From positions 1-64,000 of the IMG/VR virus record IMGVR_UViG_2867134129_000001: a stretch of 64,000 nucleotides of DNA; one strand, 5' to 3'. Of this stretch, positions 1,787 through 52,052 are shown one piece after another (the first letter of the stretch is position 1; every line of letters starts with the position of its first letter). This DNA comes from a virus (Duplodnaviria > Caudoviricetes). The notes under the pieces were generated by a model. It saw only the letters and a program-made list of their open reading frames with translations. It made no database searches and was not told the DNA's origin. Made by a program: the position numbers and the translations under genes.

Positions 1787-2049
1787 CCGCCGCCGACCTG
1801 TCCCGTGTGGACGTGTCCACCGAGGAGCGGATCCGCCGTATCGACGAGCTGACCGCTCTGAAGCGGGCCCGGTTCGCGGTCGGCATGGCCGCCGAGGAAC
1901 GCCACCAGTGCGACTCCGACGACAGCCGCTTCGCCCTGCTTCCGTGCCCGCACCCCGAGGCGTGCTCCACCGCAGCCGACTACCCGGGCTTCGACGCCTG
2001 GATCACCCAGCAGCAGAACCTCAACACCGCAGCCCGGAGGACCCGATGA
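1783..2049 (+). CDS. Phage hypothetical protein
   Basis: GTGA overlap start (VTAADLSRVD). Confidence 0.6.
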   Translation: MTAADLSRVDVSTEERIRRIDELTALKRARFAVGMAAEERHQCDSDDSRFALLPCPHPEACSTAADYPGFDAWITQQQNLNTAARRTR

Positions 2050-2381
2050 ACGCCGACCGCACCGAGTACATCGCCGGACTCCGGCAGCTCGCGACCTGGC
2101 TGGAGGAGAACCCGTCCGTCCGGGTCAGCAGCGACGAACGGTTCCTCGTTCCTCTGCACACGAACACGGCGGTCGAGGAGTTCGCGGCGGAGCACAGCCT
2201 GCCCGTGGTCATGGACGACGAGGGCAACAAGTCGGCTCAGATGCAGTTCGGGCCGATCACGTACTACGCCTACGGCTACGTCGACTTCGCCCAGCACACG
2301 GCGGAGATGGACGAGCGCAGGGCCCGCAAGTGGGCCGACGAGCAGGGCATGGAGCTGCGCGAGACGGAGGCGACGGCATGA
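2046..2381 (+). CDS. Phage hypothetical protein
   Basis: GGAGG RBS, ATGA overlap, MNADRTEYIAGLRQLATWLEENP. Confidence 0.7.
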   Translation: MNADRTEYIAGLRQLATWLEENPSVRVSSDERFLVPLHTNTAVEEFAAEHSLPVVMDDEGNKSAQMQFGPITYYAYGYVDFAQHTAEMDERRARKWADEQGMELRETEATA

Positions 2382-2644
2382 AGACCTTCAACCTCTCCTG
2401 GGGCGACCGTCCGATCCAGCTGGAGAACGAGAACGGCCACACGTTCCTCCGTCTCGGTGCTGAGCTGCGGGTCGACGTGACGGACACCTCCCTGGACCAG
2501 CTCAACCGGCTAGCCCAGGTCGCAGCGGACCTGGCGGACGTCAGGCGAGACCGGATCCGGGCCACCCAGGTCGCCGACGAGGTCGCCGCCGAGGACGGGT
2601 ACCGGTTCGTCGGTGTCCCCTACCAGCGGCAGGCAGCAGCGTGA
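2378..2644 (+). CDS. Phage hypothetical protein
   Basis: ATGA-coupled start MKTFNLSWGD. Confidence 0.6.
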   Translation: MKTFNLSWGDRPIQLENENGHTFLRLGAELRVDVTDTSLDQLNRLAQVAADLADVRRDRIRATQVADEVAAEDGYRFVGVPYQRQAAA

Positions 2645-2835
2645 CGCCGCGCACGGAGACCGTGACCGTCTCCCACTACCTGTGCGACACCCCGCCCGTC
2701 ATCACCGGCGCGGTCGCGGAGTCCCTTGTTCGGTCGCTGCGACTCGTCGACCCCGACTACCAGGACACGGTCGGCGCCGGCTACGTCGAAACGCTCGAAG
2801 AGTTCGCCATCCGCATCAGCAGGGGCGGTGCCTGA
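2641..2835 (+). CDS. Phage hypothetical protein
   Basis: GTGA-coupled small ORF. Confidence 0.55.
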   Translation: MTPRTETVTVSHYLCDTPPVITGAVAESLVRSLRLVDPDYQDTVGAGYVETLEEFAIRISRGGA

Positions 2836-3065
2836 TGCGGACTGCTTGGGACGACCACGAGGCAGCCGGCCGATACCTGTCCGCCGCAGAGGAAGCCCGA
2901 CTGATCGTGAACCTCGGCCGGTTCAGGGCGAACCAGGCCCGCCGCCACCCGTCCGGCTGCAAGTGCAGCCCCTGCCGCATCCGGATCGTGTCGGAGCGTC
3001 GCGCACGAGCCGCCGAAGCGGCCTCCAGGTATCTCGCCACCATCACCCCTGAGGGAATCCGATGA
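2835..3065 (+). CDS. Phage hypothetical protein (HxxxCxCxxC motif)
   Basis: TGATG-coupled start MRTAWDDHE. Confidence 0.55.
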   Translation: MRTAWDDHEAAGRYLSAAEEARLIVNLGRFRANQARRHPSGCKCSPCRIRIVSERRARAAEAASRYLATITPEGIR

Positions 3066-3511
3066 GTCTCCACCTTGGCATACGCCGCCCCCGCAAGCAC
3101 CGGGCTGCTGACGCCGTCGCCCAGCTGCGGGACGAAAACCGCCGGCTTCTCACCCAGGTCGTGGGTGCCGGTGACGCCATCGCCACCCTGGAGCACCAGT
3201 TGGCCGACGTCCGGGCCATGCGGGCTGAGGCCGAGCAGGTTGTCGTGTGCCTCGACGCCGATCTGGGGGAGCGGACCGAGGAGCGCGACCGGGCTCTCGC
3301 TGAGGTCGACCGGCTGCAGGCCCTCCTCGCCCCGTTCCTGGCGGCGGAGGCGAACGCCAACGCAATCACCGTCCCGGCCTCCATTCGCGACACCGCGAAG
3401 TTCGAGGACCAGGCGACCGCCCCGATCGACGTCCGCCCCCTGTGGGAGGCGATCGGCCCGTTGGTCCGCACCGAGGGCAGCACCAACCCGGCGCACCTGC
3501 CCGCCGCCTGA
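3062..3511 (+). CDS. Phage coiled-coil hypothetical protein
   Basis: RBS GAGGGA; heptad-rich central region. Confidence 0.65.
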   Translation: MSLHLGIRRPRKHRAADAVAQLRDENRRLLTQVVGAGDAIATLEHQLADVRAMRAEAEQVVVCLDADLGERTEERDRALAEVDRLQALLAPFLAAEANANAITVPASIRDTAKFEDQATAPIDVRPLWEAIGPLVRTEGSTNPAHLPAA

Positions 3512-3577
3512 ACCCGCCGGGCCGCGCGGATGACACCGGCCCCCGGCCCGGCGCCCAACACCTTGAGGAGCCCCCTC

Positions 3578-3913
3578 GTGAACGCGTCCACCCACGAACT
3601 GCACGTCCCCACCTACGCCCGGCCCGTACTCGTACAGGCCACCGAGCCGCACCCCGGCCTGCACGTCTACCCGACCCCCGACGAGATCGCCGACCCCGGC
3701 GACACCTACGTCTGGCGGCTCGGCCACCACTCTGGCCACGTCATCGCGAAGTTCGAGCAGCGGACCCAAGCGGAGGACGCCGCCCGCGCCCTGGGCCGGG
3801 TCGCCGACTGGACCCGTCCGGCCGCCGGCATCCGGTCCGACGTCGACCCCGAGGACGTCTTCGACGCGCTGGGCGAGTTCCCCTGCCTGTTCATTACCGA
3901 CCAAGCCAGCTAG
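3578..3913 (+). CDS. Phage hypothetical protein
   Basis: GAGGAG RBS before GTG at 3578. Confidence 0.6.
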   Translation: MNASTHELHVPTYARPVLVQATEPHPGLHVYPTPDEIADPGDTYVWRLGHHSGHVIAKFEQRTQAEDAARALGRVADWTRPAAGIRSDVDPEDVFDALGEFPCLFITDQAS

Positions 3914-3987
3914 TCCGCCTCATGCGAACGCCCCCGCCGAGGCGAATTCGGCGGGGGCACCCAACCCCATCATCCCAGGAGGACCCC

Positions 3988-4386
3988 ATGACCGAGAAGC
4001 CGTACACCAACGAAGACCTCCGCGCCGAAGCCACCCGCCAGCACGCAGCCCTCACCAAGGACCCGGACTTCATGGGCGTCGGCGAGCAGATGGAGGGGCG
4101 AGATGTCGTTCCCGACGGCGGGGTCGCATGGAACGACTTCAGCGACGAGACCCACGAAGCGGCGCAGCGCAGCATCCACGGCCTGATCAGCGGTGCAGCC
4201 GACGTATCCAAGTGGGCGGTCAACCTCGGCGCGGACGGGCTAGAGCCGGTCGGCCTCATCCTCAACATCAACGACTCCGTCGGCGAGCACCGCGTCCGGC
4301 TCCACTTCGCGTTCGCCCCCGACATGGACAAGGCGACCCGCAACAAAGTAATCGACCTCGTCGCTGACGCAATCCGCCGCACCTGA
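3988..4386 (+). CDS. Phage hypothetical protein
   Basis: AGGAGG RBS; MTEKPYTNEDLRAEA. Confidence 0.7.
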   Translation: MTEKPYTNEDLRAEATRQHAALTKDPDFMGVGEQMEGRDVVPDGGVAWNDFSDETHEAAQRSIHGLISGAADVSKWAVNLGADGLEPVGLILNINDSVGEHRVRLHFAFAPDMDKATRNKVIDLVADAIRRT

Positions 4387-4496
4387 CCCACCGACCGGCA
4401 GGCGTCTGAGCCCGGCTCCGTCTGCCCGCTGCGGGCCGCCAACCCTCCTGGCGGCCCGCAGCAACCCCGAACCGAACCACCACGAACGGACACCAC

Positions 4497-5339
4497 GTGA
4501 CCAACCCACGCCTCGCCACCGACACCGACAACGGCCGGTACTACACCGACCCCGCCGGCGGCCCCGCACTCATCTCCGTCACCAACGTCCTCGCCACCGC
4601 CGTCGCCAAACACGCCCTCATCCCGTGGGCCGTCAAGCTCACCACCGAACACATCCTCGACAACCTCACCGAGGTCAACGACCGCATCGACGACGACCGG
4701 CCCGCCCTCACCCGGGAGATCAAGGCCGTCCACCGCCAGGTCAAGGAAACCGCTGGCGACCTCGGCGACCGCATCCACACCGCGGCCGAACACCACCTCC
4801 TCGGCTCGCCCGTCGCGGACGACCCCGAGGTCGCCCCGTACCTGGCCCAACTCGTCCTCTGGCTGGCCATGTGGGGCGTCGACCTCAACGAGCACATCGA
4901 AGCCACCGAGATCACCGTGTTCCACCGCCGGCTGGGCTATGCCGGAACCGCTGACCTTCTGATCTGGCTGCCCACAGGGCCGGACCGGTCGATGGAGCTG
5001 TGGCTCATCGACTTCAAGACGTCCGCCACCCGCAGCGCAAAGAGCGTCTACCCGGAGAACACTCTCCAGCTCGCCGCCCTTCGGTACGCGGAGACCGTTC
5101 TCCTCCCCGACGACACCGACGCCCCCATGCCTGCCATCCAGCGCACCGGCGTCCTCAACCTCAGGGCCAAGTCTCACGCCCTCGTCGAGATGCCCGCCGG
5201 CCGGGACGCGCACGCCGCGTTCCGTGGCCTCCTCCAGGGCGCCCGGTGGCTGCACGACGCACCGTCCACCTACCCCGCACTCCTCGCCCCGGGCCAGACC
5301 GCCCCGGCTCGTAGGCGCACAACCCGAAAGGCAACCTGA
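4497..5339 (+). CDS. PD-(D/E)XK (RecB/Cas4-like) phage exonuclease
   Basis: ISVTNVL, GDRIH, ATEITVF..YAGTADL, LIDFKTS, LQLAALRYA motifs. Confidence 0.85.
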   Translation: MTNPRLATDTDNGRYYTDPAGGPALISVTNVLATAVAKHALIPWAVKLTTEHILDNLTEVNDRIDDDRPALTREIKAVHRQVKETAGDLGDRIHTAAEHHLLGSPVADDPEVAPYLAQLVLWLAMWGVDLNEHIEATEITVFHRRLGYAGTADLLIWLPTGPDRSMELWLIDFKTSATRSAKSVYPENTLQLAALRYAETVLLPDDTDAPMPAIQRTGVLNLRAKSHALVEMPAGRDAHAAFRGLLQGARWLHDAPSTYPALLAPGQTAPARRRTTRKAT

Positions 5340-5340
5340 C

Positions 5341-6375
5341 ATGGGTAGCCGCATCCGAACCATGCAGAAGCAGGCCCGCGAACTGGGCCGTCTCCGTACC
5401 GGCTACAGCGTCCCGAGCGACGACCCGAAGAAGCGCGACCGCCCCGTGAAGTCGAAGACGTGGGTGCTCAGCAGCCACGCCGAGCACTACGTGGCCGCCG
5501 CCGCCGAGGCATGGGGCGGGGAGGTGGAGCGCTGGCAGCCGCAGGGCAATGGCGCCCCCCAGTTTCGTGTCATCACCAAGGCCGAGCAGCTCGACGCGAT
5601 CCTTCCCCCGGGTGACCCGCTGTCGCAGGCCAACGAAATGTGGAACAAGGGCGGCTGCGCCCGCCGCTGCGACGGGATGACGGAACAGATCAGCCGCCAC
5701 CCCTGCCTCTGCCTCGCCGAGCACGGCCCCGAGTGGCACCTCCTGCGGCAGGAACTGCGCACCAAGGACAAGGTCTGCGCGCCTACCTCCCGCCTCAACG
5801 TCGTGCTGCCGGACATGCCGGACGTCGGTGTCTGGCGAGTCGAGACGCACTCGTTCTACGCAGCCAACGAACTCGCGGGCACTGTCGACATGGTGCTGTC
5901 CGGCTCCGGCGGCAAGGGCTTGGTCCCGGTCCTCCTCCGCATCGAACCAAGGACGCGCGTTGCTGGGGGGAAGACGAAGCACTTTCCCGTGGTCGTCGTG
6001 GAGGTGCGCGGCGTCACTACCCGGCAGGCCCTTACCGGTCCGCTGCCGACCGCGGTTGCTTTGGACCCGACCGGGGCCCGCGCGGTCGCTGCGATCGAGG
6101 CGCCACGCCCGGACTACCTGGCGCTGGCCGAGGGCGCGCTCACGGTCGACGACGTGCAGGACGTGTACCGCAACGCCAATGCTGCGGGCCACCTGAACGA
6201 CGACCTCGTGGCCGCGCTGAAGCGGAAGGCCGAGGAGCTGAAGAACCCGGCCCCGAAGCCCAACCCGAAGCCTGACCCGGAGCCAGACGAGGACGGCGCC
6301 TACCCCGCTGAAGTCGTCGAAGAGCCGCCATCCAGCACCTGGCCGGCCGTCGCACAGGCCGGATCCGCCACCTAG
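5341..6375 (+). CDS. Gp3-like / recombination-directionality-factor-like protein (sits in the recombinase slot)
   Basis: MQKQARELGRLRTG N-terminus, CARRCDG and CxPTSRLNVVLPD..GVWRVETHS motifs. Confidence 0.7.
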   Translation: MGSRIRTMQKQARELGRLRTGYSVPSDDPKKRDRPVKSKTWVLSSHAEHYVAAAAEAWGGEVERWQPQGNGAPQFRVITKAEQLDAILPPGDPLSQANEMWNKGGCARRCDGMTEQISRHPCLCLAEHGPEWHLLRQELRTKDKVCAPTSRLNVVLPDMPDVGVWRVETHSFYAANELAGTVDMVLSGSGGKGLVPVLLRIEPRTRVAGGKTKHFPVVVVEVRGVTTRQALTGPLPTAVALDPTGARAVAAIEAPRPDYLALAEGALTVDDVQDVYRNANAAGHLNDDLVAALKRKAEELKNPAPKPNPKPDPEPDEDGAYPAEVVEEPPSSTWPAVAQAGSAT

Positions 6376-6446: not shown

Positions 6447-7151
6447 ATGACCTGGCACCTCAGCCGCATGGCCGGCTTCGATATCGAATCGACGGGCATC
6501 GACGTCGAGACCGCCCGCATCGTTACCGCCTGCATCGTCCAGGTCGGCGGCCAGCAGCCCACCACCACGGCGAACTGGCTGACCGACGTTGACGGCGAAG
6601 AGATCCCCGCCGGGGCCGCCGCGGTCCACGGGATCAGCACCGAGAAGGCCCACGCCGAGGGTGTCGATCTGCGACTGGCCGTGGAGGAGATCCTCGGCGC
6701 CCTTACCCAGGTGATCCTGTCCGGGATCCCGGTCGTCGCGATGAACGCCCGCTACGACCTGACCCTCCTGGACCGGGAAGCGCAGCGATACGGCTTCCAG
6801 CCTCTCACTGAAGCCGTCGTGATCGACCCCTACGTCATCGACAAGCAGGTCGATACCTACCGGCCCGGGAAGCGGACCCTGACCGCCCTGTGCGAGCACT
6901 ACGACGTCCGTCTCGACGCCGCCCACAGTGCCGACGCCGACGCGGTCGCCGCATGCCGGGTCGCATGGCGGCAGGCAACCCGGTACCCGCAGCTCGCCGC
7001 CATGACCCTCGACGAGCTGCACACCGCGCAGGTCGGGTGGGCCGCCGAACAGGTCGCTTCGCTCCAGGAGCACTTCCGCAAGACCCGGCCCGACGCCGTC
7101 GTCGAAGGCGCCTGGCCGCTCATCCCCAGGCAGAAGGAGATGACCTCGTGA
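6447..7151 (+). CDS. DnaQ-like (DEDDh) 3'-5' exonuclease
   Basis: GFDIESTG, MNARYD, AHSADADA motifs. Confidence 0.9.
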   Translation: MTWHLSRMAGFDIESTGIDVETARIVTACIVQVGGQQPTTTANWLTDVDGEEIPAGAAAVHGISTEKAHAEGVDLRLAVEEILGALTQVILSGIPVVAMNARYDLTLLDREAQRYGFQPLTEAVVIDPYVIDKQVDTYRPGKRTLTALCEHYDVRLDAAHSADADAVAACRVAWRQATRYPQLAAMTLDELHTAQVGWAAEQVASLQEHFRKTRPDAVVEGAWPLIPRQKEMTS

Positions 7152-10140: not shown

Positions 10141-10325
10141 GGCCAGAGTGTAAGCCATCACCAACACTTCCTTCCTGTTCATCCTGGCCAATCTTTAAAG
10201 AAGTGTGGCAGAGTGGACCCCAGGAACGCCAGACATTGCCGACGGCGAATCACGAAAACCGCGGCCCGACAGGGCCTGGTTCCGTGCGCCCGGATTCGGC
10301 AGATACAGCCCACGGGAGGGCTCTG

Positions 10326-12029
10326 ATGTACCGAAGCGACGGCAACGCACTCACCGTCATGGACTGGTTCTGCGGAGCCGGAGGCAGCAGTCAAGGCGCA
10401 CACTCCGTCCCCGGCGTCCAGGTCACCCGCGCCGCGAACCACTGGGCGAAGGCCATCGACTCCCACGAAGCGAACTTCCCCGAAGCCAGCCACTACCGCG
10501 GCGACATCCGCACCGCCCCCGTCTGGGACTGGCCCGTCACCGACATCTTCTGGGCTTCGCCGGAGTGCACCAACTGGTCCGTGGCGAAGGGGAAGCGCCG
10601 CAACTTCGACACCGCCATGCAGGGGAGCCTCCTCGACCTCCTCGCCGACCAGAACGAGGAGGAGCAGGGCGACGCAGAGGAGGAGTCGCGGGCCCTGATG
10701 GAGGAGGTGCCGCTGTACCTCCGCGGCGTACAGGAGCGTGGCGGGCTCGTCAAGGCCGGGGTCGTCGAGAACGTCACCGACGTCCGGGCCTGGGACCAGT
10801 GGGACCGGTGGATCGGCGAACTCCACAAGATGGGTTACCTCACCCGCATCATCGCCCTGAACTCGATGCACGCGAACCCGCGGTCCGTGCACGCCGCACC
10901 CCAGTCCCGCGACCGGCTCTACGTCGGCTACTGGCACAAGTCGCTGGGCCGCACCCCCGACTGGGACAAGTGGCTCCGCCCCCGCGCCTGGTGCTCCGGC
11001 TGCGACACCTGGGTGCAGGCCATGCAGGTCTTCAAGACCCCCGGCCGCGACATGGGCCGCTACCGCACCCAGTACGTCTACCGCTGCCCCTCCACCACCT
11101 GCCGCAACCAGATGGTCGAACCCGAAGCACTCCCCGCCGCTGCGGCGATCGACTGGTCCATCCCGGGGCAGCGCATCGGCGACCGGGCCAAGCCCCTCGC
11201 CGACAAGACGCTCGCCCGGATCCAGGCCGGGCTCAAGAAGTTCTCCCAGCCCGTCCCGATGATGGTCCCGGCCGGCGGGACCTGGAGAGACACGGCCGTC
11301 AGCGTCGGCGAACCCATGGGCACCCGCACCACCCGGGAGAACGACGGGCTCATGGTGCCGCCACTCCTCGTTCCCGTCGAAGGCCGAGACGGCAAGGAAG
11401 TCCGTTCTGTCAACGACCCGCTGCGCACCATGACCACCCGCAACGAGACCGGGCTCGCCTGGCTCCCGTTCATCGCCGAACTCCGCGGCGGCGGCTCCGT
11501 CGCCCGGTCCGTCACCGACGCCCTCGCCACCGTGACCGCCTCCGGAAACCACCACGGGCTCGTCATGCCCGAACTGCCCGCCATGGTCATGCGGAACAAC
11601 TCGGTGCGCGGTGACGCCGGATACCTGAGCACCCCGGTCACCGAACCCGTGAGGGCGCTCACCACGGCTGGCCACCAGTCGCTCGTCACCTGGAACGACA
11701 TCCTCGTCCCCTACTACACCAACGGCACCGCCCGCACCGTCCGCGAGCCCATCGGCGCTCTCTCCACCCGCGACCGGTACGCACTCGTCTGCGGCGACGT
11801 CGACATCAACGACGTCCGCTTCCGGATGCTCGAACCCCACGAGATCGGGCGGGCCATGAGCTTCGCCGACGACTACATCGTCCTCGGCTCCAAGCGCGAC
11901 AAGGTCCGCCAGTACGGCAACGCCGTCACCCCCAACGCCGCCGAGATCATCCTCTGCGCCCTCGTCGAAGCCGTCACCGGCGAAGAGCTGGAGCGGTACG
12001 CCGAACCCCAGCTGGCAGCCGCCGCGTGA
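10326..12029 (+). CDS. C5 cytosine DNA methyltransferase (orphan)
   Basis: Motif I DWFCGAGG, motif IV ASPECT, motif VI VENV, motif VIII PQSRDR, motif X YGNAV. Confidence 0.92.
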   Translation: MYRSDGNALTVMDWFCGAGGSSQGAHSVPGVQVTRAANHWAKAIDSHEANFPEASHYRGDIRTAPVWDWPVTDIFWASPECTNWSVAKGKRRNFDTAMQGSLLDLLADQNEEEQGDAEEESRALMEEVPLYLRGVQERGGLVKAGVVENVTDVRAWDQWDRWIGELHKMGYLTRIIALNSMHANPRSVHAAPQSRDRLYVGYWHKSLGRTPDWDKWLRPRAWCSGCDTWVQAMQVFKTPGRDMGRYRTQYVYRCPSTTCRNQMVEPEALPAAAAIDWSIPGQRIGDRAKPLADKTLARIQAGLKKFSQPVPMMVPAGGTWRDTAVSVGEPMGTRTTRENDGLMVPPLLVPVEGRDGKEVRSVNDPLRTMTTRNETGLAWLPFIAELRGGGSVARSVTDALATVTASGNHHGLVMPELPAMVMRNNSVRGDAGYLSTPVTEPVRALTTAGHQSLVTWNDILVPYYTNGTARTVREPIGALSTRDRYALVCGDVDINDVRFRMLEPHEIGRAMSFADDYIVLGSKRDKVRQYGNAVTPNAAEIILCALVEAVTGEELERYAEPQLAAAA

Positions 12030-16334: not shown

Positions 16335-17466
16335 TGACCGCCCCGCCGACCAGCTGCGCGCCGCCGCCGTCCGCGCCCGGGAGACCGGCGACCCGCTGCA
16401 CACCGCCCTGGCCCCGCTGCTGGAGGCTGTGGCGGTGGACGCCATCAGCTGCCGGTGCGTCCCGGAGTGCCCGACGGGGGCCGCCCTGGCGGTGGCCCGG
16501 CAGCTCCTCGGCACCACGACGTGCGGCCCGGTGCCGGACTCCTGCGGTGACGAGCCGTGCGCGAACCACGAGCGGGAGCAGGCCCACGCCGAGGGCGAGC
16601 ACGCGTTCTGCAGGGCCGAGTGTGCTACCGATCTGGCCGACGACTACGCCTCCTGCCCCGGCTATGAAGCGTCGCCGAACCTGTGCCGCTGCCCCTGCTA
16701 CGGGTGCAAGCACCACTGCTCGACCCACCAGCCGCCCGCCGCCCCGCCCGCGCCTGCCGACCGGGCCGCCGTGCTCACCGAGGCCGAGCGGACGATGCTC
16801 ACCTACGCGCTCGACGAGGCGCAGGAGCACATCTGGTCGCGTGACGGGTTCACCGACGAGGACCAGGCCGCCGTGACCTCGCTCCGCCGTCTGGCCGGTG
16901 AGGCTGCCGCCGGGGCACACCACCCCACCACGACCCGCTCGTACCGGCTGGAGCACCGCCACCCCGAAGAGTCCACCTGGCGACCGAACACCCCCGGCAT
17001 CGGCGCGAACTGGTCCTGGCGGTCCCGTGAGAAGGCCGACCAGCGCCTGGCCGAAGCCCAAGACCGGTGGCCCGACTTCGAGCACCGGCTGATCGAGACG
17101 ACGACCACCGTCACCGAGGCCCCCGCTGTCCCTGCCGCGCCCGAGGAGACCACCTGGGTGGGTGCGACGGAACTCGCCTCCGACCGGGCCGCCACCCGGG
17201 ACCGCATCCGCCGGGCGATCTGTGAGGCGTCCGGGTTCACCTGGCTCCCCGACGACCTCGTCATCGAACTGTGCGAGGCCACCAACACCGGACGTCCCAC
17301 CGGCTGGCCCGAACTGGCCGACCGCGACGGCGACATCTGGGCCATCACCAGCGAGACCCACGACGGCGACACGGTCCTGATGCCTTGCTCCGGAGACATG
17401 GGCCCCATGCTCCGCCGCGACGTCGAAGCCCACTTCGGGCCGCTCACCACCGAGGGGGCCCGGTGA
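16318..17466 (+). CDS. Mosaic phage hypothetical protein (Cys/His-rich modules)
   Basis: GAGGAG RBS; several short modules such as CPGYE..CRCPCYGCKHHC and ADRDGDIW. Confidence 0.65.
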   Translation: MPDTTPDRPADQLRAAAVRARETGDPLHTALAPLLEAVAVDAISCRCVPECPTGAALAVARQLLGTTTCGPVPDSCGDEPCANHEREQAHAEGEHAFCRAECATDLADDYASCPGYEASPNLCRCPCYGCKHHCSTHQPPAAPPAPADRAAVLTEAERTMLTYALDEAQEHIWSRDGFTDEDQAAVTSLRRLAGEAAAGAHHPTTTRSYRLEHRHPEESTWRPNTPGIGANWSWRSREKADQRLAEAQDRWPDFEHRLIETTTTVTEAPAVPAAPEETTWVGATELASDRAATRDRIRRAICEASGFTWLPDDLVIELCEATNTGRPTGWPELADRDGDIWAITSETHDGDTVLMPCSGDMGPMLRRDVEAHFGPLTTEGAR

Positions 17467-17750
17467 CCGCCCAGCCCGAGCGTGTCCCGCTCGATCACCT
17501 CACCAGCGACCACCTCGACGCCCTGCACGCGCGGCTTGACCTCCTCGAAGCGGGCCGCGACGAGCGGGTCGTGCTGCTGGAGGAGGCCCGCGACGCCCTG
17601 GAGTCCGCCGGAGCACCAGGTGCGCACGGCGACGACTGGCCCCGACTCGTCCCCGCCATCGAACAGCTGGCCGCCGACCGTGACCGGCTCGCCACCGAGG
17701 TCGCCCGGCTCACCACCGACCAGCAGCCCCCCACGCAGCACACCACCTGA
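17463..17750 (+). CDS. Phage hypothetical protein
   Basis: GTGA-coupled; RVPLDHLTSDHLDALHARL. Confidence 0.6.
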   Translation: MTAQPERVPLDHLTSDHLDALHARLDLLEAGRDERVVLLEEARDALESAGAPGAHGDDWPRLVPAIEQLAADRDRLATEVARLTTDQQPPTQHTT

Positions 17751-17772
17751 CCCGACCAACGAGGAGAACCCG

Positions 17773-17946
17773 ATGCGACGCGAACCCACCATCCACAACC
17801 CGGCCCTCACCGTCACCTGCCCCCACTGCCGCTGCGTCCCCGGTGCCCCCTGCCTCGACAGCCGCGGCAGCCGGCTCACGGAAAACCGGGTCCACCAGGC
17901 ACGTGCGGCAGCCCACCGCGACCGTCAGGCCGCACGCCAGGCATGA
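17773..17946 (+). CDS. Small zinc-finger protein
   Basis: GAGGAG RBS; ALTVTCPHC..PGAPC..VHQAR. Confidence 0.65.
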   Translation: MRREPTIHNPALTVTCPHCRCVPGAPCLDSRGSRLTENRVHQARAAAHRDRQAARQA

Positions 17947-17951
17947 AAGCC

Positions 17952-17990
17952 CGGTACGCCCGCCCGGATCAGATCCGGGCGAGCGTACCG
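17952..17990 (+). terminator. Long hairpin ending the early operon
   Basis: cggtacgcccgcccggatc-a-gatccgggcgagcgtaccg near-perfect IR. Confidence 0.7.
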
Positions 17991-18018
17991 AGGCGGGTGC
18001 GACGTTAGTGCGACATTC

Positions 18019-18288
18019 ATGGGGAACACTGTCGAAATGATGACATTGCCGCCTCGTGAACTGGTTGGGTACGCGCTCTGCGCCTGGGACGCCCGCGTCA
18101 GCGCAGACGAACGGACCGAGGCCGCTTTCCTGGGTCTCGCCGGGATGATCATCAGTCACAGTCCGGCGACCCTCGACGACACCTGGCCCATCCTGCAAAT
18201 GATCACAGCATGGGACAAGGTCACCAGCCGAAAACGCCACCGCGCCGACTACCTCGCAATGGCCGACCGCATCCTCGCCCAGCTATAA
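18019..18288 (+). CDS. Hypothetical moron gene
   Basis: Stand-alone 89-aa ORF between two hairpins. Confidence 0.5.
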   Translation: MGNTVEMMTLPPRELVGYALCAWDARVSADERTEAAFLGLAGMIISHSPATLDDTWPILQMITAWDKVTSRKRHRADYLAMADRILAQL

Positions 18289-18331
18289 CAACACCAGCGG
18301 CCCCCGCCGGAAGGGGGGGGCGCAGCCAATC

Positions 18332-18793
18332 TCAACGTTTCGTGGGCCAGATTTCATGCCGAGCATCCCACCACACCACATGAAAGACGTTCCCGACCAA
18401 AAAACCCCAGAGCCGGCCAGCGCTCCCGATCCGCAACTTCCAGATCTGCGTCATGTCGGATAAACCCAACGCGTCAAGCCGGGCCAGCGCGACCCTATTC
18501 GGCAAAGTATGAACATCGTGACGCTTCCCAGGCCATTCGCCCTGATGGAACAGCTCGTGCATCGTCTGGCTCTCGAACTTCGCCATATCCTGAAGCAACG
18601 CCATCAAACGCTCATGATCCAGCGACACGAGCCCCCACGGGCCATCCAAGTCCAAATGGCTGAACCGCCAGCACACCCGCTCCTCAGACGTCCTGCTGCT
18701 CGGCAGGAGCAAGGCCGGATCCCCAGTGCGCTTCTCGTCCGAGATAGACCCGGGCGGGACGCTGACCTTCTTCCCCTTCCCCCCTTTGCCCAT
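18332..18793 (-). CDS. Putative toxin (RelE-like / MAG6450-like) of a Panacea TA pair
   Basis: C-terminal LRI..GRLWGF..NVFHVVWWDARHEIWP; coupled directly downstream of the Panacea gene. Confidence 0.7.
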   Translation of the reverse strand: MGKGGKGKKVSVPPGSISDEKRTGDPALLLPSSRTSEERVCWRFSHLDLDGPWGLVSLDHERLMALLQDMAKFESQTMHELFHQGEWPGKRHDVHTLPNRVALARLDALGLSDMTQIWKLRIGSAGRLWGFLVGNVFHVVWWDARHEIWPTKR

Positions 18794-19251
18794 CAGTCTT
18801 CGCGGCCCGCCAACGCACCGAAGAAGTCGGCGATCTCCTCATCCCGCAGCTCTTCGTTGCTGCGCTGGAGGTCGTCCTCCAGGCCCGCCCGCCGCCGGGC
18901 ATCCAGCCAAGGGCCGGGCCGATGCGTCATCGCGGACAGCTCATGGGCAGAAAACGCCTTGAAACTCTCCAGCACGGCGTCGATCGACTCACGCTCGCCC
19001 ACATCCAGCTTCGACGGGTCGCCGTGAATATCGCCGCTCTCAAGTCGGAACTGGCCGCGGTGCTCGGCGTACAACTCGTACACCACCGGCCCGTTCGCCC
19101 ACGCCTCGAAACGCTCCGGGAACAGCTGCCGGTCCTCCCAGGCCAGGTGGTACCCGTAGGCGAAATAGCAGAGCTTCTGCAACTTCATCGCGGACATCGG
19201 ACTGTCCTTGCGCAGTATGTACGCGGCCACGTCCTGAACGCTCGCTGTCAT
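18793..19251 (-). CDS. Panacea (DUF4065/SocA-like) antitoxin
   Basis: DVAAYIL, MKLQKLCYFAYG, FEAWANGPVV, ELSAMTH..PW. Confidence 0.9.
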   Translation of the reverse strand: MTASVQDVAAYILRKDSPMSAMKLQKLCYFAYGYHLAWEDRQLFPERFEAWANGPVVYELYAEHRGQFRLESGDIHGDPSKLDVGERESIDAVLESFKAFSAHELSAMTHRPGPWLDARRRAGLEDDLQRSNEELRDEEIADFFGALAGRED

Positions 19252-19413
19252 GGTGTCCCCTCTGGTGCCTGTTCCTCACCGTAGATGAGTCCTCTCCGGG
19301 TGCGACTCGGCGGGTCTACGGGCAGGACGGCACATCCCCCAGACAGCCCACCGTAGCGACTGGAGCTGGCACCGGTAAGAGGCAGGGTGAAGGTCTGGAC
19401 AACCCATGACGTG

Positions 19414-19429
19414 TCGATCGCACGTTCGA
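19414..19429. promoter_or_regulatory. LexA (SOS) box-like site
   Basis: TCGATC-GCAC-GTTCGA, one mismatch from the actinobacterial TCGAAC-N4-GTTCGA. Confidence 0.5.
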
Positions 19430-19505
19430 ATAACTGGTGGGAGGAGTCCACCCAGAGGCCCAATCGTCCAGCCCCACGGAACCGCGTGACGAACGGGCCC
19501 GAACA

Positions 19506-19541
19506 CGCCGCGACCCCCATCAATCGGTGGAGGTCACGGCG
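19506..19541 (-). terminator. Hairpin downstream of the Aca2-like gene
   Basis: On -: cgccgtgacctcca...tgggggtcgcggcg pairing with G-U pairs. Confidence 0.55.
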
Positions 19542-19575
19542 CACGTGCGCCTTCGGGGACCACGAGGGCACAGGG

Positions 19576-19995
19576 TCACGACGCCTCACCCTCCTGCGGC
19601 GGGTAGGCGATGGCGAGCCCCGGCACCTCCTGCGCAATCCGGGCAACAACCGCCCGGTGCCAGGAAGCCGGGAACGGAACCTCGGGGTGCGCTGCGTGGT
19701 ACTCGGCATCCGTCCGGTACGTGAACACCCCAGGCCCTGGGAGGTCAAGAAGCTTGCTGACGGCGCCAGCCACGAACTCACCGGTACGGGCCTCCAGGCT
19801 CTCCATCTCCAAACGCACCCCGTCAGGGACGGCGTACTTGCCCTGCTCCCAGTGCCGCACCGTGCGGGGGGACACCCCGAGGTGGGCGGCGAGCCAGTCC
19901 CCGGTCAGGCCGAGCCAGTCCCGGACCACACGGAACTCGGCGTCCGTCATCCGCTCATCGTCGGACATCCCGGGAGGGTCGGTGTGCTCAGTCAT
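19576..19995 (-). CDS. Aca2/YdiL (DUF1870)-like HTH regulator
   Basis: MTDAEFRVVRDWLGLT..LAAHLGVSPRTVRHWEQGKYAVPDGV and C-terminal TYRTDAEY..W..AVVAR. Confidence 0.75.
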   Translation of the reverse strand: MTEHTDPPGMSDDERMTDAEFRVVRDWLGLTGDWLAAHLGVSPRTVRHWEQGKYAVPDGVRLEMESLEARTGEFVAGAVSKLLDLPGPGVFTYRTDAEYHAAHPEVPFPASWHRAVVARIAQEVPGLAIAYPPQEGEAS

Positions 19996-20015
19996 GCTGG
20001 GGCCTCCAGGCCGTA

Positions 20016-20040
20016 AGCCCCGGCGGTATCCGCCGGGGCT
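20016..20040 (-). terminator. Hairpin between the acidic gene and the Aca2-like gene (possible attenuator)
   Basis: agccccggcgg-tat-ccgccggggct perfect 11-bp stem. Confidence 0.6.
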
Positions 20041-20050
20041 GGGGTGGCCG

Positions 20051-20386
20051 TCAGTTGTCGACGTCGTGCTTCTGGATGATCGTCCACAGGTCGACGTCCT
20101 GGATCGCTTCGCGGATGTCGAAGTCGCCGATCTCGTCGGTGTAGTCGGGGTCGGTGTGGTGCAGGCCGATGAACTCGTTGCCCGCGATGGAGATGCCGGC
20201 GGGGAGGGCGTCTTCGATGGCGTCGCGGTAGTCGGAGGCGATGAGGTCGAGGGCGCCGCTGCTCTCCATGCGCTCCTGCCAGTCGCTGGGGCCGCCGTTG
20301 ATGGCGTCCACGATGCTGGCCTCGACGGACAGGTTGCCGCTGTCGCCGTGGTTGTTCCAGGTGCCGTAGCTGGTGGTGACGTTCAT
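20051..20386 (-). CDS. Small highly acidic protein; candidate anti-CRISPR / DNA-mimic anti-defence protein
   Basis: 111 aa with 23 D+E versus 4 K+R; GGAAGGA RBS; directly upstream of the Aca2-like gene. Confidence 0.6.
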   Translation of the reverse strand: MNVTTSYGTWNNHGDSGNLSVEASIVDAINGGPSDWQERMESSGALDLIASDYRDAIEDALPAGISIAGNEFIGLHHTDPDYTDEIGDFDIREAIQDVDLWTIIQKHDVDN

Positions 20387-20439
20387 GGCCGGGTCCTTCC
20401 GGTGGAGTCTGGGGCTGTTCCCCTGACCTCATGACGACA

Positions 20440-20468
20440 ACATTAGCTTCCTGTTTTAGGAAGCGCAA
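20440..20468 (-). promoter_or_regulatory. Sigma70-type promoter with operator palindrome in the spacer
   Basis: On -: TTGCGC-17 nt-TAATGT; IR GCTTCCT-N5-AGGAAGC at 20446-20464. Confidence 0.75.
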
Positions 20469-20511
20469 GGGGTGTCGCGCAGAAGAGTGAGAACCCATCA
20501 GAAACCCCAGC

Positions 20512-21657
20512 TCAGAAACGCATCGCCGGATGGCACCGCTGGCACAGGGTGGTCGTCGGCAACCCGTCATGGCCGGTCGCATCCCGCCGGCGGGTCACCT
20601 CGCCGCAGTCCGGGTCCCCGCAGTGCGGTACCGTCTCCCACCCTTGAGGCCGCGACCCGTTCCGGCCTTCCTCCTCCAGGCGCCCCCACGAGTCCTGGTA
20701 CGGCCTGTGCGGGCCCGAACGCCCGGCAAGCTGCATCCACCCATCCACGACCGCATCCGTGCCCTCCAGGGGCCGTCTCGCAGCCTCACGGAACGCCACC
20801 GGGTCCGGCAGCTCATCCGCAGCCAGCCGGTGCACGTACACTGCCGCAGCAGAGTTCACCGCGGCACCACCGAGGTCGAGGTACGTCTTCAAGTCCTGCT
20901 CGACCCAACCGGCGTCCAGGGCGGCAGCGACAAGGCCGACCAACCGTCCGCGCTGCTTCGACCCCGGCGGGCGACCACGGAAGTCCAGCGCGGACACGAA
21001 GGGCTCGGCCTGCGGGTGCAGTTCCGGCGTACCAGTGGCGGTACCTCGGTCTTCGTCTTGATGAAGGAAATCGCCACCGCCTCCTCCCTGCCCAGCCGGC
21101 TCATCACCTGCAGACGGCAGCGGGCCGGAGGAGGAGGGAGAGTCTTGAGGAGAAGCAAGGAGAAGAACAGGAGAAGGGGGCCCAACGGTGGTTGGCCCTT
21201 CACCCACCACGGTTGGGCCTTCGCCCACTGTGGTTGGGCCTTCCGCAACCACGGTTGGGCCTTCAGGCGTCAAAGGCCCAACCGTGGTTGGCCCTTCCGG
21301 CTCACAAGGTCCAACGCTGGTTGGGGCTTCGAAATCCGGCACCCGGAACTGCATCGCCACACCCGGCACCGCATACAACGGACGGCCATCCCGGCCCGTA
21401 CCGATCGGCAACCGGAACTCCCAGCCCGCCACCGCAAGCCGACGCAGCATCTCCCGGACGCTCAGCTCATCCTTCGCACCCGTCCACCGCACCAAGTCCG
21501 CCAAGCGCACCTTGCTGCGCCTGCCCCGGGCCGCGTCGAACCGCCACTCGTCGTCATACCGGGCGTCATCCGCGATCTCCAACGCCACCGCCCGCTGCAA
21601 ACCCTTGATCTCCGGCCCCAACGCCTCACGCAACTCACGGCGCAACTCGCTACTCAT
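20512..21657 (-). CDS. Replication initiator 2 (RepA-like: N-terminal HTH, repeat linker, C-terminal zinc finger)
   Basis: ALEIADDA..LADLVRWTG..VREMLRRL wHTH; EGPTTVG repeats; PHCGDPDC..TR..CQRCHP C-terminus. Confidence 0.7.
   Translation of the reverse strand: MSSELRRELREALGPEIKGLQRAVALEIADDARYDDEWRFDAARGRRSKVRLADLVRWTGAKDELSVREMLRRLAVAGWEFRLPIGTGRDGRPLYAVPGVAMQFRVPDFEAPTSVGPCEPEGPTTVGPLTPEGPTVVAEGPTTVGEGPTVVGEGPTTVGPPSPVLLLASPQDSPSSSGPLPSAGDEPAGQGGGGGDFLHQDEDRGTATGTPELHPQAEPFVSALDFRGRPPGSKQRGRLVGLVAAALDAGWVEQDLKTYLDLGGAAVNSAAAVYVHRLAADELPDPVAFREAARRPLEGTDAVVDGWMQLAGRSGPHRPYQDSWGRLEEEGRNGSRPQGWETVPHCGDPDCGEVTRRRDATGHDGLPTTTLCQRCHPAMRF
21181..21330. repeat. Iteron-like repeats (about 6 copies, 21-33 bp spacing) inside rep2
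   Basis: Repeated cc(a/c)ac-N3-ggttgg(g/c)(c/g)cttc units with CCAAC..GTTGG dyad; encode (E)GPTT/VVG. Confidence 0.75.
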
Positions 21658-21741
21658 CACAACCTCCACCGCACCGACCAACGCCGAGCAGCACAAACAC
21701 AGCACTCCTGAGGGAACGCGGGACCCGCCCGCCGATCTGGA

Positions 21742-21771
21742 AACGGCCGGGCAGCTGGTGCTGCCCGGCCG
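21742..21771 (-). terminator. Hairpin between the BRO gene and rep2
   Basis: acggccgggcagc-tggt-gctgcccggccgt 13-bp stem. Confidence 0.6.
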
Positions 21772-21787
21772 TAAGGAACCGCAGGGG

Positions 21788-22555
21788 TCAGGCGCTAAGG
21801 GCGACCTGGCCGCCCGACTCGAACATGCCGATCTCGTCGGCGATCTCCGCGTACACCTGCTCCAGCAGCGGGCGGTCGTCCTCGACGTATGCGACGACCT
21901 TGTCGATCCGCGAACCGGCAGGCCCCGGGATCTTCTCCGGGCGCTTCCCATGCACCTTCAGGTACCGGTTTGAAACCCGGACCCCGAACCCCGACTGGAA
22001 CTTCGCCACGGTCGCCGGCTTGTGCCCCTTCTCCGCGAGGAACGTCGACGCGTACAGAGGCGTCTCCGCGGAGTCGAGCTCGGGCCGCTCGCCCATCGCC
22101 CGCGCCATGATGACCTTGCCGGTCGCCGCCGCGTAGGACTCCGGCAGGACGTGCCGCAGGATCGCGAGCACCTCGGCCTGCTCCCGGTACGGAAGGGGCC
22201 CAGCCGCCGTAGTGACCTCCCGCACCGGCTCCGCCTCGAACCGCCCGGTCTCCCGGATCTCGCGCAGGATTGCCTTGACGCGCTTCTTGATCTCTTTCGC
22301 GCCAGGGAGGGTGCTGCGGAAGATCAGCTCCCACATGCCGTCCTCGTAGATGACGTTCAAGCGCTGCGGACCGCCGGGGGTCAGCACGATTTGCTGACCC
22401 TTTTCGTCATCACCCAGGAGGCGCGTTGCGTCGCTCGCCTGCCCGTACCCCATGGCCTTCGCGTAGTCCGATGCCACGGCGTAGGGGGTGCCGTGCTCGG
22501 TGACACCGAAACGGATGTCCGACCCCGAGACGTTGAACAACTGCACTGCGCTCAT
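21788..22555 (-). CDS. BRO-N domain phage antirepressor
   Basis: PYAVASDYAKAMGY..LGDDEKG..TPGGPQ..IYEDGMWELIFRS..ILREIRETGRF. Confidence 0.88.
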   Translation of the reverse strand: MSAVQLFNVSGSDIRFGVTEHGTPYAVASDYAKAMGYGQASDATRLLGDDEKGQQIVLTPGGPQRLNVIYEDGMWELIFRSTLPGAKEIKKRVKAILREIRETGRFEAEPVREVTTAAGPLPYREQAEVLAILRHVLPESYAAATGKVIMARAMGERPELDSAETPLYASTFLAEKGHKPATVAKFQSGFGVRVSNRYLKVHGKRPEKIPGPAGSRIDKVVAYVEDDRPLLEQVYAEIADEIGMFESGGQVALSA

Positions 22556-22929
22556 CAGATGGCGTCCATCTGCCGGCGAAGCACGCGCAGGGTGTCGACG
22601 AACGCCTGCATCTGTGCGATGAGGATGTCGGCGCCATTCTTGTCGACCTCGGCGTCGGTCTCGCCGCTCAGGTACATGACGAGCGTGTCATCGTCCGGCG
22701 TGCGGTCGATCTTGAGGAGCTGAGCCTTGATGAGAGCGTCAGCCACATCGCCGTCGAGCGGATCGGGGTTTGCCACGCTGTGCTCTGCCGAGAGGTGGAC
22801 GGTCATGCGCATGGTGGCGCATGCCGCCGCCTGGTGGCTTTCGCGGCACCAGGCCGGGCAGAGGGTGGGGTGCGCGGCGTGGGTGTCACCCTCAGGCGCA
22901 TCTACGGATCCGGGCAGTAGAGTAGTCAC
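22555..22929 (-). CDS. Hypothetical protein (CPAWC..H motif, DUF6907-like)
   Basis: LCPAWCRESH; AGGAAG RBS. Confidence 0.6.
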   Translation of the reverse strand: MTTLLPGSVDAPEGDTHAAHPTLCPAWCRESHQAAACATMRMTVHLSAEHSVANPDPLDGDVADALIKAQLLKIDRTPDDDTLVMYLSGETDAEVDKNGADILIAQMQAFVDTLRVLRRQMDAI

Positions 22930-23125
22930 GTGGACTTCCTCTCTTCGCAGGGAAGGGTCTCCGATCAGCGAGGTGCAACTCGCTGTGCGAACCGGCCGAG
23001 GCGTTTGAGCGCCTCGGCCGTTCTCGTCTCAAGCTAAGCCCATTCTGAGCCGAAGGCAAGCCTAGTTAGGCATTCGGTGTGCGTCGGGGGTGGCGCCCAC
23101 GGCTCTACCTGTGCATGATGTGCCT

Positions 23126-23527
23126 ATGAGTGAGGACTACGAGGCGCTAGGGAGGGCCGTAAGGGAGGCCCGGATCCGCCAAGGCATGACGCAGACCCAG
23201 TTGGCCGAGGTGGCTGGAGTGTCGCGAGCCACGCTTCAAAATTTGGAGCGCGGCGGAAGGCTGCGGAGCCTCAACCTAGTGAAGATCGAGTCGGTGCTGG
23301 GGTGGGCCCCAGGATCCGTCCAAGCTCTCCTCGAAGGGGGCGCCCCCAGCCCGATAGAGGAGATGCCGGAAGCGGTCGGGGCCTCCTCGGTCACCCTCTC
23401 CGAAGAGGAGCTTGCGCAGGCAGTCACCAGCGCCATGGTCGCCACGGTCGACACTGTAACCGCCGCAGAAATCCGCGAGGTCGCGCGGAGGATGGTTGAG
23501 GATCTTAAGCAACGCGGAATCCTCTGA
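23126..23527 (+). CDS. XRE-family repressor (probably leaderless)
   Basis: LGRAVREARIRQGMTQTQLAEVAGVSRATLQNLERG; CATGAT -10 lies 6 nt before the ATG; divergent from the BRO/rep2 operon. Confidence 0.85.
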   Translation: MSEDYEALGRAVREARIRQGMTQTQLAEVAGVSRATLQNLERGGRLRSLNLVKIESVLGWAPGSVQALLEGGAPSPIEEMPEAVGASSVTLSEEELAQAVTSAMVATVDTVTAAEIREVARRMVEDLKQRGIL

Positions 23528-23550
23528 GTCCTCCGCATCCTGGGCGCAAG

Positions 23551-23576
23551 AAGGCCCCGCCAGTGGCGGGGCCTTT
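23551..23576. terminator. Bidirectional terminator
   Basis: aaggccccgcc-agt-ggcggggccttt between convergent genes. Confidence 0.75.
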
Positions 23577-23589
23577 CGATTGTCCTGGT

Positions 23590-23997
23590 CTAGCGGCGGA
23601 GCGCCTCATCCAGGTACTCCTGCACGGGCCCAAACAGCCCCCACGGCACGTACTTCGCGATCTCCTCGTGCCTGATCCATTCCACTGCGGCGATCTCTTC
23701 GGCGTCCCCGACGATGGCGTCTCCGGAGATCAGCTCGCACGCCACATACGTCATTGGCACCCCTGTCTGCGGGTGGACCCGGTCACCGAGGACTCGGACG
23801 GCCTTGACCTCCAGGCCGACCTCCTCCGCGGTCTCCCGCACCGCGGCCTGCTCCGGGGACTCGCCGGCCTCGATGCCGCCGCCGGGGAACGCCCACAGCA
23901 GCTTCCCCTCCCGCTGCTGCCGCCGGATCATCAGCACCTTCCCTCTGTCGACGATGATCGCCGTGGAGACGGGGGGCTGGACACTCTGCTCGGTCAC
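23590..23997 (-). CDS. Nudix hydrolase (intact Nudix box)
   Basis: FPGGGIEAGESPEQAAVRETAEEVGL. Confidence 0.9.
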   Translation of the reverse strand: MTEQSVQPPVSTAIIVDRGKVLMIRRQQREGKLLWAFPGGGIEAGESPEQAAVRETAEEVGLEVKAVRVLGDRVHPQTGVPMTYVACELISGDAIVGDAEEIAAVEWIRHEEIAKYVPWGLFGPVQEYLDEALRR

Positions 23998-24632
23998 GCT
24001 GCCTCCAAGGCACTCAAGATCGGCGGGTAGATGTTCTCGGCAGGGATGAAACGGGTCAGGGCGGCGAGGGGCACCCAAGCGACGTCCATGTTCTCGACCG
24101 CGTCCAGGTTGCTGGCCTCGCCGGCGAGATAGTCGCAGAGGACGTAGCTGGCCAGCACCCCGGTTTTCGGGTGAACCCGGGTGCCGAGCTCCTCGCGGAC
24201 CGCAACGTGGACCCCGGTCTCCGCGTGGGTCTCCTGCACCGCCACCGACGCCACGGCGGCGCCCGGCTTGCACATCCCGGCCGGGAACTGCCAACTGAGC
24301 GCGTCATCGCCGCGGCGGCACACGAGGAGCACCTCGGCCCCGCGCAGCACCACGGCGATAGCGACCCGGAGCACCTGCGCCTCAGCCTGGGCGGGCTCCT
24401 CGGGCGGGCGGGACAGAAGGGTGAAGCGGCGTCTCACGTGCTCGGTAGCCCTCTCGTAGGTGGTGTCGAGGGCCTGCTGCATCTCGGTGCGCGGCACGAT
24501 CTCCGGGTTTTTGTGCCAGCCGGCGACCGTGCGAACCGCAACCCCGAGCTTCGCGGCGAAGCTCTCGTTCGTCATGCGGAGTGCGGCCTGCAACGCGCAG
24601 GCGGTGCGGCCGGTCCACGTGGTGACGTTCAC
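23994..24632 (-). CDS. HTH + degenerate Nudix fusion protein
   Basis: WTGRTACALQAALRMTNESFAAKLGVAVRTVAGW HTH; FPAGMCKPGAAVASVAVQETHAETGV lacks several Nudix-box glutamates. Confidence 0.8.
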   Translation of the reverse strand: MNVTTWTGRTACALQAALRMTNESFAAKLGVAVRTVAGWHKNPEIVPRTEMQQALDTTYERATEHVRRRFTLLSRPPEEPAQAEAQVLRVAIAVVLRGAEVLLVCRRGDDALSWQFPAGMCKPGAAVASVAVQETHAETGVHVAVREELGTRVHPKTGVLASYVLCDYLAGEASNLDAVENMDVAWVPLAALTRFIPAENIYPPILSALEAA

Positions 24633-52038: not shown

Positions 52039-52052
52039 GAGGGGAGGGCAGC

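Follow-up and report, generated by a model that had tools for sequence, protein, structure and literature searches.

RNA binding by the regulator Aca2 was reportedly described by Birkholz et al. in Nature in 2024. The closest described systems are the acrIF8-aca2 operon of phage ZF40 (PDB 7B5J, 7VJO-7VJQ, 8W35) and the actinobacterial operons of the acr-aca2 type surveyed by Feussner et al. 2026. According to the available text of that survey (PMC13551039), repression by Aca2 takes place at a repeat in the DNA and at two hairpins of the 5' untranslated region (5'-UTR), an RNA motif named 'actino' is described, and DEAD/HA helicases often follow aca2. An operon of this kind was analyzed here in a 64,000-nucleotide stretch of a Caudoviricetes virus (IMG/VR record IMGVR_UViG_2867134129_000001, positions 1 to 64,000), hereafter the window. 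On its minus strand, a gene for a 111-amino-acid (aa) acidic protein (20051..20386) is followed, after 55 nt, by a gene for a 139-aa helix-turn-helix (HTH) protein (19576..19995). The two genes very probably form an Aca2-type autoregulated cargo operon. With slightly better than even confidence, the locus as a whole is read as a two-gene, self-repressing 'cargo-aca2' operon, the cargo of which is predicted to block a component of an immune system. The mobile element that carries the operon resembles a prophage and is part of a Streptomyces chromosome.

An earlier sequence-only reading of this stretch had placed the acidic gene immediately upstream of the HTH gene and had assigned the HTH protein to the Aca2/YdiL (DUF1870) pattern. 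Both open reading frames (ORFs) were recovered in that order on the minus strand, and their third-position GC content (GC3), 0.97 (acidic gene) and 0.84 (HTH gene), is of the coding type, as in real Streptomyces genes. The assignment of the regulator held in three comparisons: with the profiles of solved Aca2 proteins, with their fold and, by tblastn, with phage ZF40. The 139-aa protein combines an HTH at its N-terminus with an Aca2-type domain at its C-terminus. It matches Pfam HTH_31 at 6.8e-7 and Aca2_YdiL (PF08965, DUF1870) at an E-value of 1.5e-4 and 22.3 bits, slightly below the cut-off of 23.8 bits. Among proteins of like length, 637 relatives were found at E ≤ 0.001; the best 120 of these 637 are 73-100% identical to it, and PF08965 is carried by many, including homologues at 73-87% identity. 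When 15 homologues were combined into a profile, it matched four solved Aca2 proteins (8w35, 7vjo, 7b5j and 7ezy) over residues 15-107, with E-values from 2.7e-13 to 3.8e-8.

The AlphaFold model of the protein (predicted local distance difference test, pLDDT, 91.8) has the two-domain fold of Aca2, an N-terminal HTH followed by a C-terminal dimerization domain. Foldseek aligns it with ZF40 Aca2 (7vjq_A) over both domains, with TMq 0.71, TMt 0.81, a root-mean-square deviation (rmsd) of 2.1 Å and 29% identity in 119 columns, and also finds YdiL (1s4k) and SO3848. In the ZF40 genome, tblastn reaches, at E 1e-7 and 32.5% identity, a feature annotated as a hypothetical protein, which we take to be aca2. 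With about 29-33% identity to ZF40 Aca2, the 139-aa protein is a homologue of Aca2 by sequence and by fold, and it is predicted to be an autorepressor.

The order of the genes, a small cargo first and the regulator second, is common to the window and ZF40. In both, an inverted repeat overlaps the promoter, with the core TTCC...GGAA here versus TTCG in ZF40, as given in the available part of PMC6765145. The promoter and operator of the window occupy 20440..20468 (minus strand): TTGCGC (-35-like) and TAATGT (-10-like) stand 17 nt apart, and the inverted repeat GCTTCCT-N5-AGGAAGC, lying between the two hexamers, fills the spacer and overlaps the operon's own promoter. These elements were read from the sequence, and the arrangement recurs in 28 of 40 Aca2-type loci as well as in the 25 loci that were aligned. 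The 5' leader, about 46 nt long, contains two hairpins (20389..20428, minus strand), as seen by RNAfold and in an alignment of 25 loci. Hairpin 1 (20406-20428, minus strand) has the stem GGUC-A-GGGG/CCCC-A-GACU. Hairpin 2 (20389-20402, minus strand; CCGG-AAGGAC-CCGG) encloses the ribosome-binding site GGAAGGA, which ends 7 nt before the ATG. Two 5'-UTR hairpins at the ribosome-binding site are likewise described for ZF40 in the accessible text of PMC13551039. Among the actinobacterial operons of that survey, which come from the same phylum, the same control at DNA and RNA is found, with uncharacterized genes 3' of the motifs; the leader of the window is likened to the 'actino' motif by its published description, not letter by letter.

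The alignment argues for a conserved RNA structure. The leader of the window folds into two hairpins at -18.5 kcal/mol, and in the 25 aligned loci, the hairpin positions are paired in 95.7% of the cells, a value reached by none of 500 shuffles. Compensatory changes occur at 3 of the 12 hairpin pairs; the covariation is modest because the 25 loci vary little. The ribosome-binding site and the start codon are kept in all of them. No Rfam family matched between 19400 and 20700. The site formed by the inverted repeat and the leader is single in the whole 7-Mb genome. In the gap that separates the two genes of the operon, the computed fold shows a GC-rich hairpin of 11 bp (20016..20040, minus strand). 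According to our own reading of the folds, a strong hairpin occurs at this place in nearly all close-spaced loci, with a sequence that varies from locus to locus; no such element was found described for ZF40 in the parts of the literature searched. Its role may lie in attenuation or in RNA stability.

The conservation of this cassette was assessed in 40 Aca2-type loci (29 from IMG/VR, 10 from genomes and the window itself). Left out of the counts were partial matches (L014, L015 and L030), loci in which the HTH match is cut at the locus start (L059, L065 and L066) and those lying on the same contigs as L002, L003, L005, L010 and L012 (L017, L018, L019, L025 and L026). The Aca2-like genes of mycobacteriophages (Cracklewink and kin), which carry a zinc-ribbon extension and showed no cassette in the flanks looked at, were left out of all counts. 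The repeat core CTTCC-N-GGAAG is present upstream in 28 of the 40 loci, all 28 of distinct sequence. It always stands before the first cargo gene, 316 to 1269 nt ahead of the regulator.

The genes behind this cassette are variable. The sequence-only reading had proposed to look for variable small genes upstream of the HTH homologues, and such genes were found behind one conserved cassette in these 28 loci; for that reason, an acr-aca-like arrangement is favored. The family of the 111-aa protein, named 'SYGTW' here, stands alone in seven loci and follows a basic 168-aa HTH_17 protein in two. Mini proteins of 58-63 aa occur alone in four loci and, in two more, are fused to a family of 100 aa named 'HFTAWL...AGW'. 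This last family (99-103 aa) or its variants occur alone in six loci and after a protein of 168-176 aa in three, and three other acidic types account for four loci. The basic 168-176-aa HTH_17 protein stands first in 6 of the 28 loci. The net charges of the acidic cargos range from -8 to -30. No PHROG match was obtained for nine representatives of the other types or for the SYGTW variant of locus L044; in Pfam, nine other-type representatives and the fusion of a mini protein with 'HFTAWL' likewise lacked a match, except that the 168-aa protein had a sub-threshold HTH_17 hit and three hits were at chance level (E 0.013-0.036). Judged from sequence comparison, one cassette and one regulator drive interchangeable and nearly always very acidic cargos in actinobacterial phages and prophages. 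At least five more unannotated acidic cargo families were seen behind the cassette, for example, in L039, L054, L032, L035, L043 and L049.

A similar arrangement exists in an isolated phage. Gilgamesh, a 129-kb phage of Streptomyces lividans (MN234216.1), as opposed to the integrated element of the window, carries the same inverted repeat and two leader hairpins ahead of gp86-gp87 (L071, 2030-2914), the second hairpin with a compensatory CUGG/CCAG stem. Gp86, annotated as a hypothetical protein, is an acidic cargo of 107 aa from another family than SYGTW. Gp87, annotated as an HTH protein, is an Aca2 homologue with 68% identity to that of the window.

The 111-aa cargo is strongly acidic. Its composition, recomputed here, agrees with that given earlier (16 Asp and 7 Glu against 3 Arg and 1 Lys), with a net charge of -19 and an isoelectric point of 4.05. 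Among 377 coding-like ORFs of 80-150 aa in the same genome, selected by a crude coding filter, only two are equally acidic per residue, one of them presumably the acidic gene itself. T7 Ocr, ArdA, T4 Arn, AcrIF2 and AcrIIA4 are small, very acidic, early-expressed inhibitors encoded by mobile elements. The 111-aa protein resembles such acidic DNA mimics in its size and strong acidity and matches none of them in sequence or fold. Its AlphaFold model (pLDDT 90.6) has a mixed alpha/beta fold. No match was found in Pfam, and PHROG returned only a weak one (E 0.0087). The sequence-only reading had recognized no named family of anti-CRISPR (Acr) proteins in it, and comparison with Pfam, the PDB sequences, Foldseek on the PDB and VIA-align likewise revealed no relation to AcrIF8 or to another named Acr.

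The SYGTW family is large. A word-indexed search gave 28 relatives from 34 candidates, and a profile search retrieved 370 representatives at E ≤ 1e-3, including 166 at ≤ 1e-10; with at least 370 clusters, the family has no name in Pfam or PHROG. The acidity is kept: the 89 stand-alone members have a median net charge of -16. Among the best 150 members, 65 have at most 125 aa and 77 at least 150 aa. The long forms are fusions: an N-terminal Phd/YefM domain was found in 5 of the 77 scanned, several HTH families were each matched in one to three members, and some fusions bear further small acidic domains. The commonest C-terminal extension ends in RPGQGARTD and is weakly HTH-like, with a sub-threshold HTH_17 match in two of eight proteins and none in the L011 fusion. 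Among 21 distinct SYGTW loci, an Aca2-type gene lies directly downstream in eight, and in seven, the domain is fused to N- or C-terminal extensions read as HTH-like; one of the remaining loci has an unassigned 202-aa gene downstream, and five lack a DNA-binding partner. In the Thermobifida phage P318, the SYGTW domain forms the N-terminus of an acidic protein of 387 aa, and this relative is matched by the acidic model in BFVD (E 4.2e-9). The other BFVD rows are weak and include Propionibacterium phage proteins (E 0.08-0.65). In their alignment to the SYGTW profile, the mini proteins of 58-63 aa look like a reduced version of the domain (hhalign probability 78.5%, E 1.7e-5).

Several side observations concern these proteins and their neighbors. 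In the mini proteins, the N-terminal strand and the central hairpin of the SYGTW domain look as though they had been deleted. The domain stands behind the antitoxin-type DNA-binding domain Phd/YefM in P0096, P0108, P0109, P0133 and P0155 and, as judged by eye, behind a ribbon-helix-helix domain in P0039. In L006, the SYGTW-aca2 pair is followed by a DEAD/ResIII helicase that has repeated HA domains (1707-4415, Pfam run), as is sometimes the case after aca2 in the actinobacterial operons described in the accessible text of PMC13551039. In L013 (6102-9473), a DEAD/ResIII helicase with HA domains overlaps the end of the SYGTW fusion; the Pfam scan covered L006 only. A ROS/MucR-type zinc-finger protein (PF05443) is encoded directly 3' of the aca2 gene in L024 (1677-2216, 9.7e-9) and directly 3' of an HTH-SYGTW fusion in L023 (6432-6965, 4.5e-13). 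In L012, a 339-aa protein is encoded 3' of the SYGTW fusion; it has no Pfam match, and its PDB sequence matches are no better than E 0.31; a search of the genome carrying the window found neither this protein nor the other cargo families.

By analogy with the published work on ZF40 Aca2, a dimer of the regulator would bind the inverted repeat in the DNA and switch off transcription, and it would also bind both hairpins of the leader RNA and block translation of the cargo. With repression at both levels, the cargo would therefore be made in a short burst on entry into the cell and then be kept low. The cargo, a folded alpha/beta acidic protein, may bind and block a protein of the host or of a competitor, most likely part of a nucleic-acid-handling immune system. 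The architecture, the acidity, the variability of the cargos and the published frame make the inhibition of some immune system the best single guess for the cargo, at about even odds. In the accessible text of the 2026 survey, uncharacterized genes under Aca control are likewise viewed as anti-defense candidates, so far unproven (PMC13551039).

A number of results weigh against the reading of the locus as a self-repressing operon with an immunity-blocking cargo. The association with aca2 is a lead, not proof: in the available text of PMC9410906, upstream acr genes accompany only 35 of 1223 Aca2-like proteins. In 12 of the 40 loci (one of them cut at the contig end), no inverted repeat was found, and the cargo families of the 28 loci that carry the cassette were sorted partly by eye. 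The sequence-only reading had given the acidic gene its own promoter and ribosome-binding site. The latter is confirmed by its conservation in the 25 loci; for the promoter, an E. coli-type consensus scan of 19200-20700 made no call, and the hexamer pair is backed by conservation across loci rather than by its consensus score. The folding energy of the leader is unremarkable compared with shuffles (z-score -1.2). Of the structural comparison proposed earlier for both proteins, only the half concerning the regulator succeeded, by its match to Aca2. For the model of the acidic protein, the best Foldseek hit in the PDB had an E-value of 0.65, with no solved fold, Acr, Ocr or ArdA matched; VIA-align against 48,161 chains gave nothing usable (best Z 4.3; T4 Arn appears at Z 3.9 and rmsd 5.0 Å, within the noise), BFVD no informative viral structure beyond the protein's own relatives and the ESM Atlas no usable match. 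The best hit of the SYGTW family profile in the PDB sequences was a poxvirus host-range protein at E 0.27, no real match.

The most specific form of an anti-defense function would be an anti-CRISPR that blocks the Cascade or Cas3 of the Streptomyces type I-E system, the host here being a Streptomyces with type I-E as opposed to the type I-F of the ZF40 system. The acr-aca2 type of the operon speaks for it, as does the host, which has type I-E genes (Cse1 at E 1.9e-68, Cas1 above the cut-off; the cas locus lies on contig C1 near 0.60-0.61 Mb) and two CRISPR arrays with 21 repeats. One spacer matches the chromosome perfectly (32/32) at the distant position 3953906-3953937 of contig C1, which would fit an inactive or inhibited system. 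The type I-E motif is of the AAG type. The flanks of the chromosomal match are GCC and TTC, without such a motif, and the match lies inside an ordinary-looking gene of 308 aa, so the host may just tolerate it. None of the 18 readable spacers matches the window (some spacers of one array are unreadable), a further point against the operon reading as a whole, and for this reason, the self-targeting argument for an active anti-CRISPR is absent. The cargo has no likeness to any solved Acr, and the SYGTW profile found no member in 400 other sampled genomes of the class; the Aca2-like regulator is commoner, with 7 in 300 other genomes of the genus. This specific function is thus judged unlikely, and the 111-aa protein, for which the sequence-only reading had proposed an anti-CRISPR, anti-restriction or anti-BREX role, is better described as an anti-defense candidate than as an anti-CRISPR. 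Among other defenses of the host, PglZ scores under the cut-off (22.6 vs. 25 bits).

Alternatively, the SYGTW domain could be a partner or effector of DNA-binding regulators, such as an antitoxin-like neutralizer, an anti-repressor or a co-regulator, with a role inside the element. This is the main rival to an immunity-blocking cargo, and we consider it about as improbable as the type I-E anti-CRISPR. The Phd/YefM and HTH domains of the long members, the Aca2-type neighbors and HTH-like extensions in the 21 SYGTW loci and the PanA-toxin pair directly downstream in the window point to it. Against it, unrelated cargos occur with the same Aca2 regulator behind the same cassette, so the regulator has no need of the SYGTW domain, and the HTH call for the commonest extension is weak. 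In the window, the SYGTW gene lacks a toxin-like partner: the operon consists of the acidic gene and the aca2-like gene only, and the neighboring toxin gene overlaps that of its own Panacea antitoxin. Moreover, regulator-inhibitor fusions are known for AcrIIA1 and AcrIF24 (cited in the available parts of PMC9410906 and PMC13551039); because anti-CRISPRs also show such fusions, those of SYGTW fail to separate the two readings. A cargo acting outside defense, as a nucleic-acid-mimicking takeover factor aimed at a nucleoid protein, RNA polymerase or a repair enzyme, or in superinfection exclusion, appears slightly less probable still. The extreme acidity kept across the family would suit it, a burst followed by shut-off suits any early function that is harmful in excess, and Aca proteins may regulate other factors of competitive advantage, according to the accessible text of PMC13551039. 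No finding here points to such a target, however, and the gene lies not among replication genes but in an accessory island that also holds toxin-antitoxin and antirepressor-like genes. Finally, the operon could be a toxin-antitoxin module, with the acidic protein as the toxin and the Aca2-like HTH protein as the antitoxin, like HigB-HigA or MqsR-MqsA. The 15-homologue profile of the regulator indeed matches HigA-2 antitoxins (E 1e-4, more weakly than Aca2), a similarity of Aca2 to MqsA is in print (available parts of PMC6765145 and PMC9410906) and the position of the small gene in front fits the HigBA order. Yet the upstream genes come from several unrelated acidic families, and the SYGTW domain behind Phd/YefM takes the position of a neutralizing domain, not that of a toxin. 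A net charge of -19 is also unlike that of typical toxins. A module of this kind is therefore very unlikely.

The claim that the locus is new has to be divided. It holds, as far as the literature was searched, for the cargo family; it does not hold for the operon type, since operons of this type, actinobacterial members included, are already in print (available text of PMC13551039). Novelty is therefore confined to the cargo family, and the gain lies in the cargo. The SYGTW family may itself already be covered by the motif, the locus lists and the unannotated protein clusters published with that survey (Supplementary Fig. S9 of PMC13551039). Tentatively, at somewhat less than even odds, the SYGTW domain, the mini proteins and the other acidic modules can be seen as a mix-and-match toolkit of inhibitors used by actinobacterial phages and prophages against host immunity. 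If so, SYGTW would represent a new and large anti-defense family (at least 370 clusters), in which the domain is often joined to a DNA-binding autoregulator of its own or to sister modules. In Streptomyces and related bacteria, the phages and conjugative elements of which matter for the engineering of antibiotic producers, few immunity inhibitors are known. The candidates that the locus yields comprise one large acidic family plus several sister families; because all of them share one recognizable cassette, a search for the cassette can find further members. Gilgamesh, as an isolated phage with the same arrangement, could serve as a test bed.

The operon lies in an accessory island on the minus strand of the window (about 18.3-25 kb), together with a Panacea antitoxin-toxin pair, a repeat-bearing protein, a BRO-N antirepressor-like gene, a DUF6907 gene and a Nudix gene. 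A megablast search of 17000-24000 against phage records returned no match, and no tRNA gene was found in the window. The Panacea pair (18332-19251, minus strand) is located 324 bp downstream of the aca2-like gene: the stop of the gene for a SocA/Panacea protein of 152 aa (PF13274, 3.7e-16) overlaps the start of a basic ORF of 153 aa without a Pfam match, and the two probably encode a PanA-type antitoxin and an unclassified toxin. Upstream of the operon, the region 20512-22929 (minus strand) contains a 479-aa ORF with EGPTxVG-type repeats and a C-terminal cysteine cluster, without a Pfam match, as well as the BRO-N antirepressor-like gene and the DUF6907 gene. Phage-like genes on the plus strand flank the island on both sides (5224-6375, 6447-7151, 10203-12029, 46675-47526 and 51759-57917). 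They encode a Gp3-like recombination directionality factor, an RNase T-type exonuclease, a C5 cytosine methylase, a capsid protein and a 2052-aa ORF, which may be the tape measure protein.

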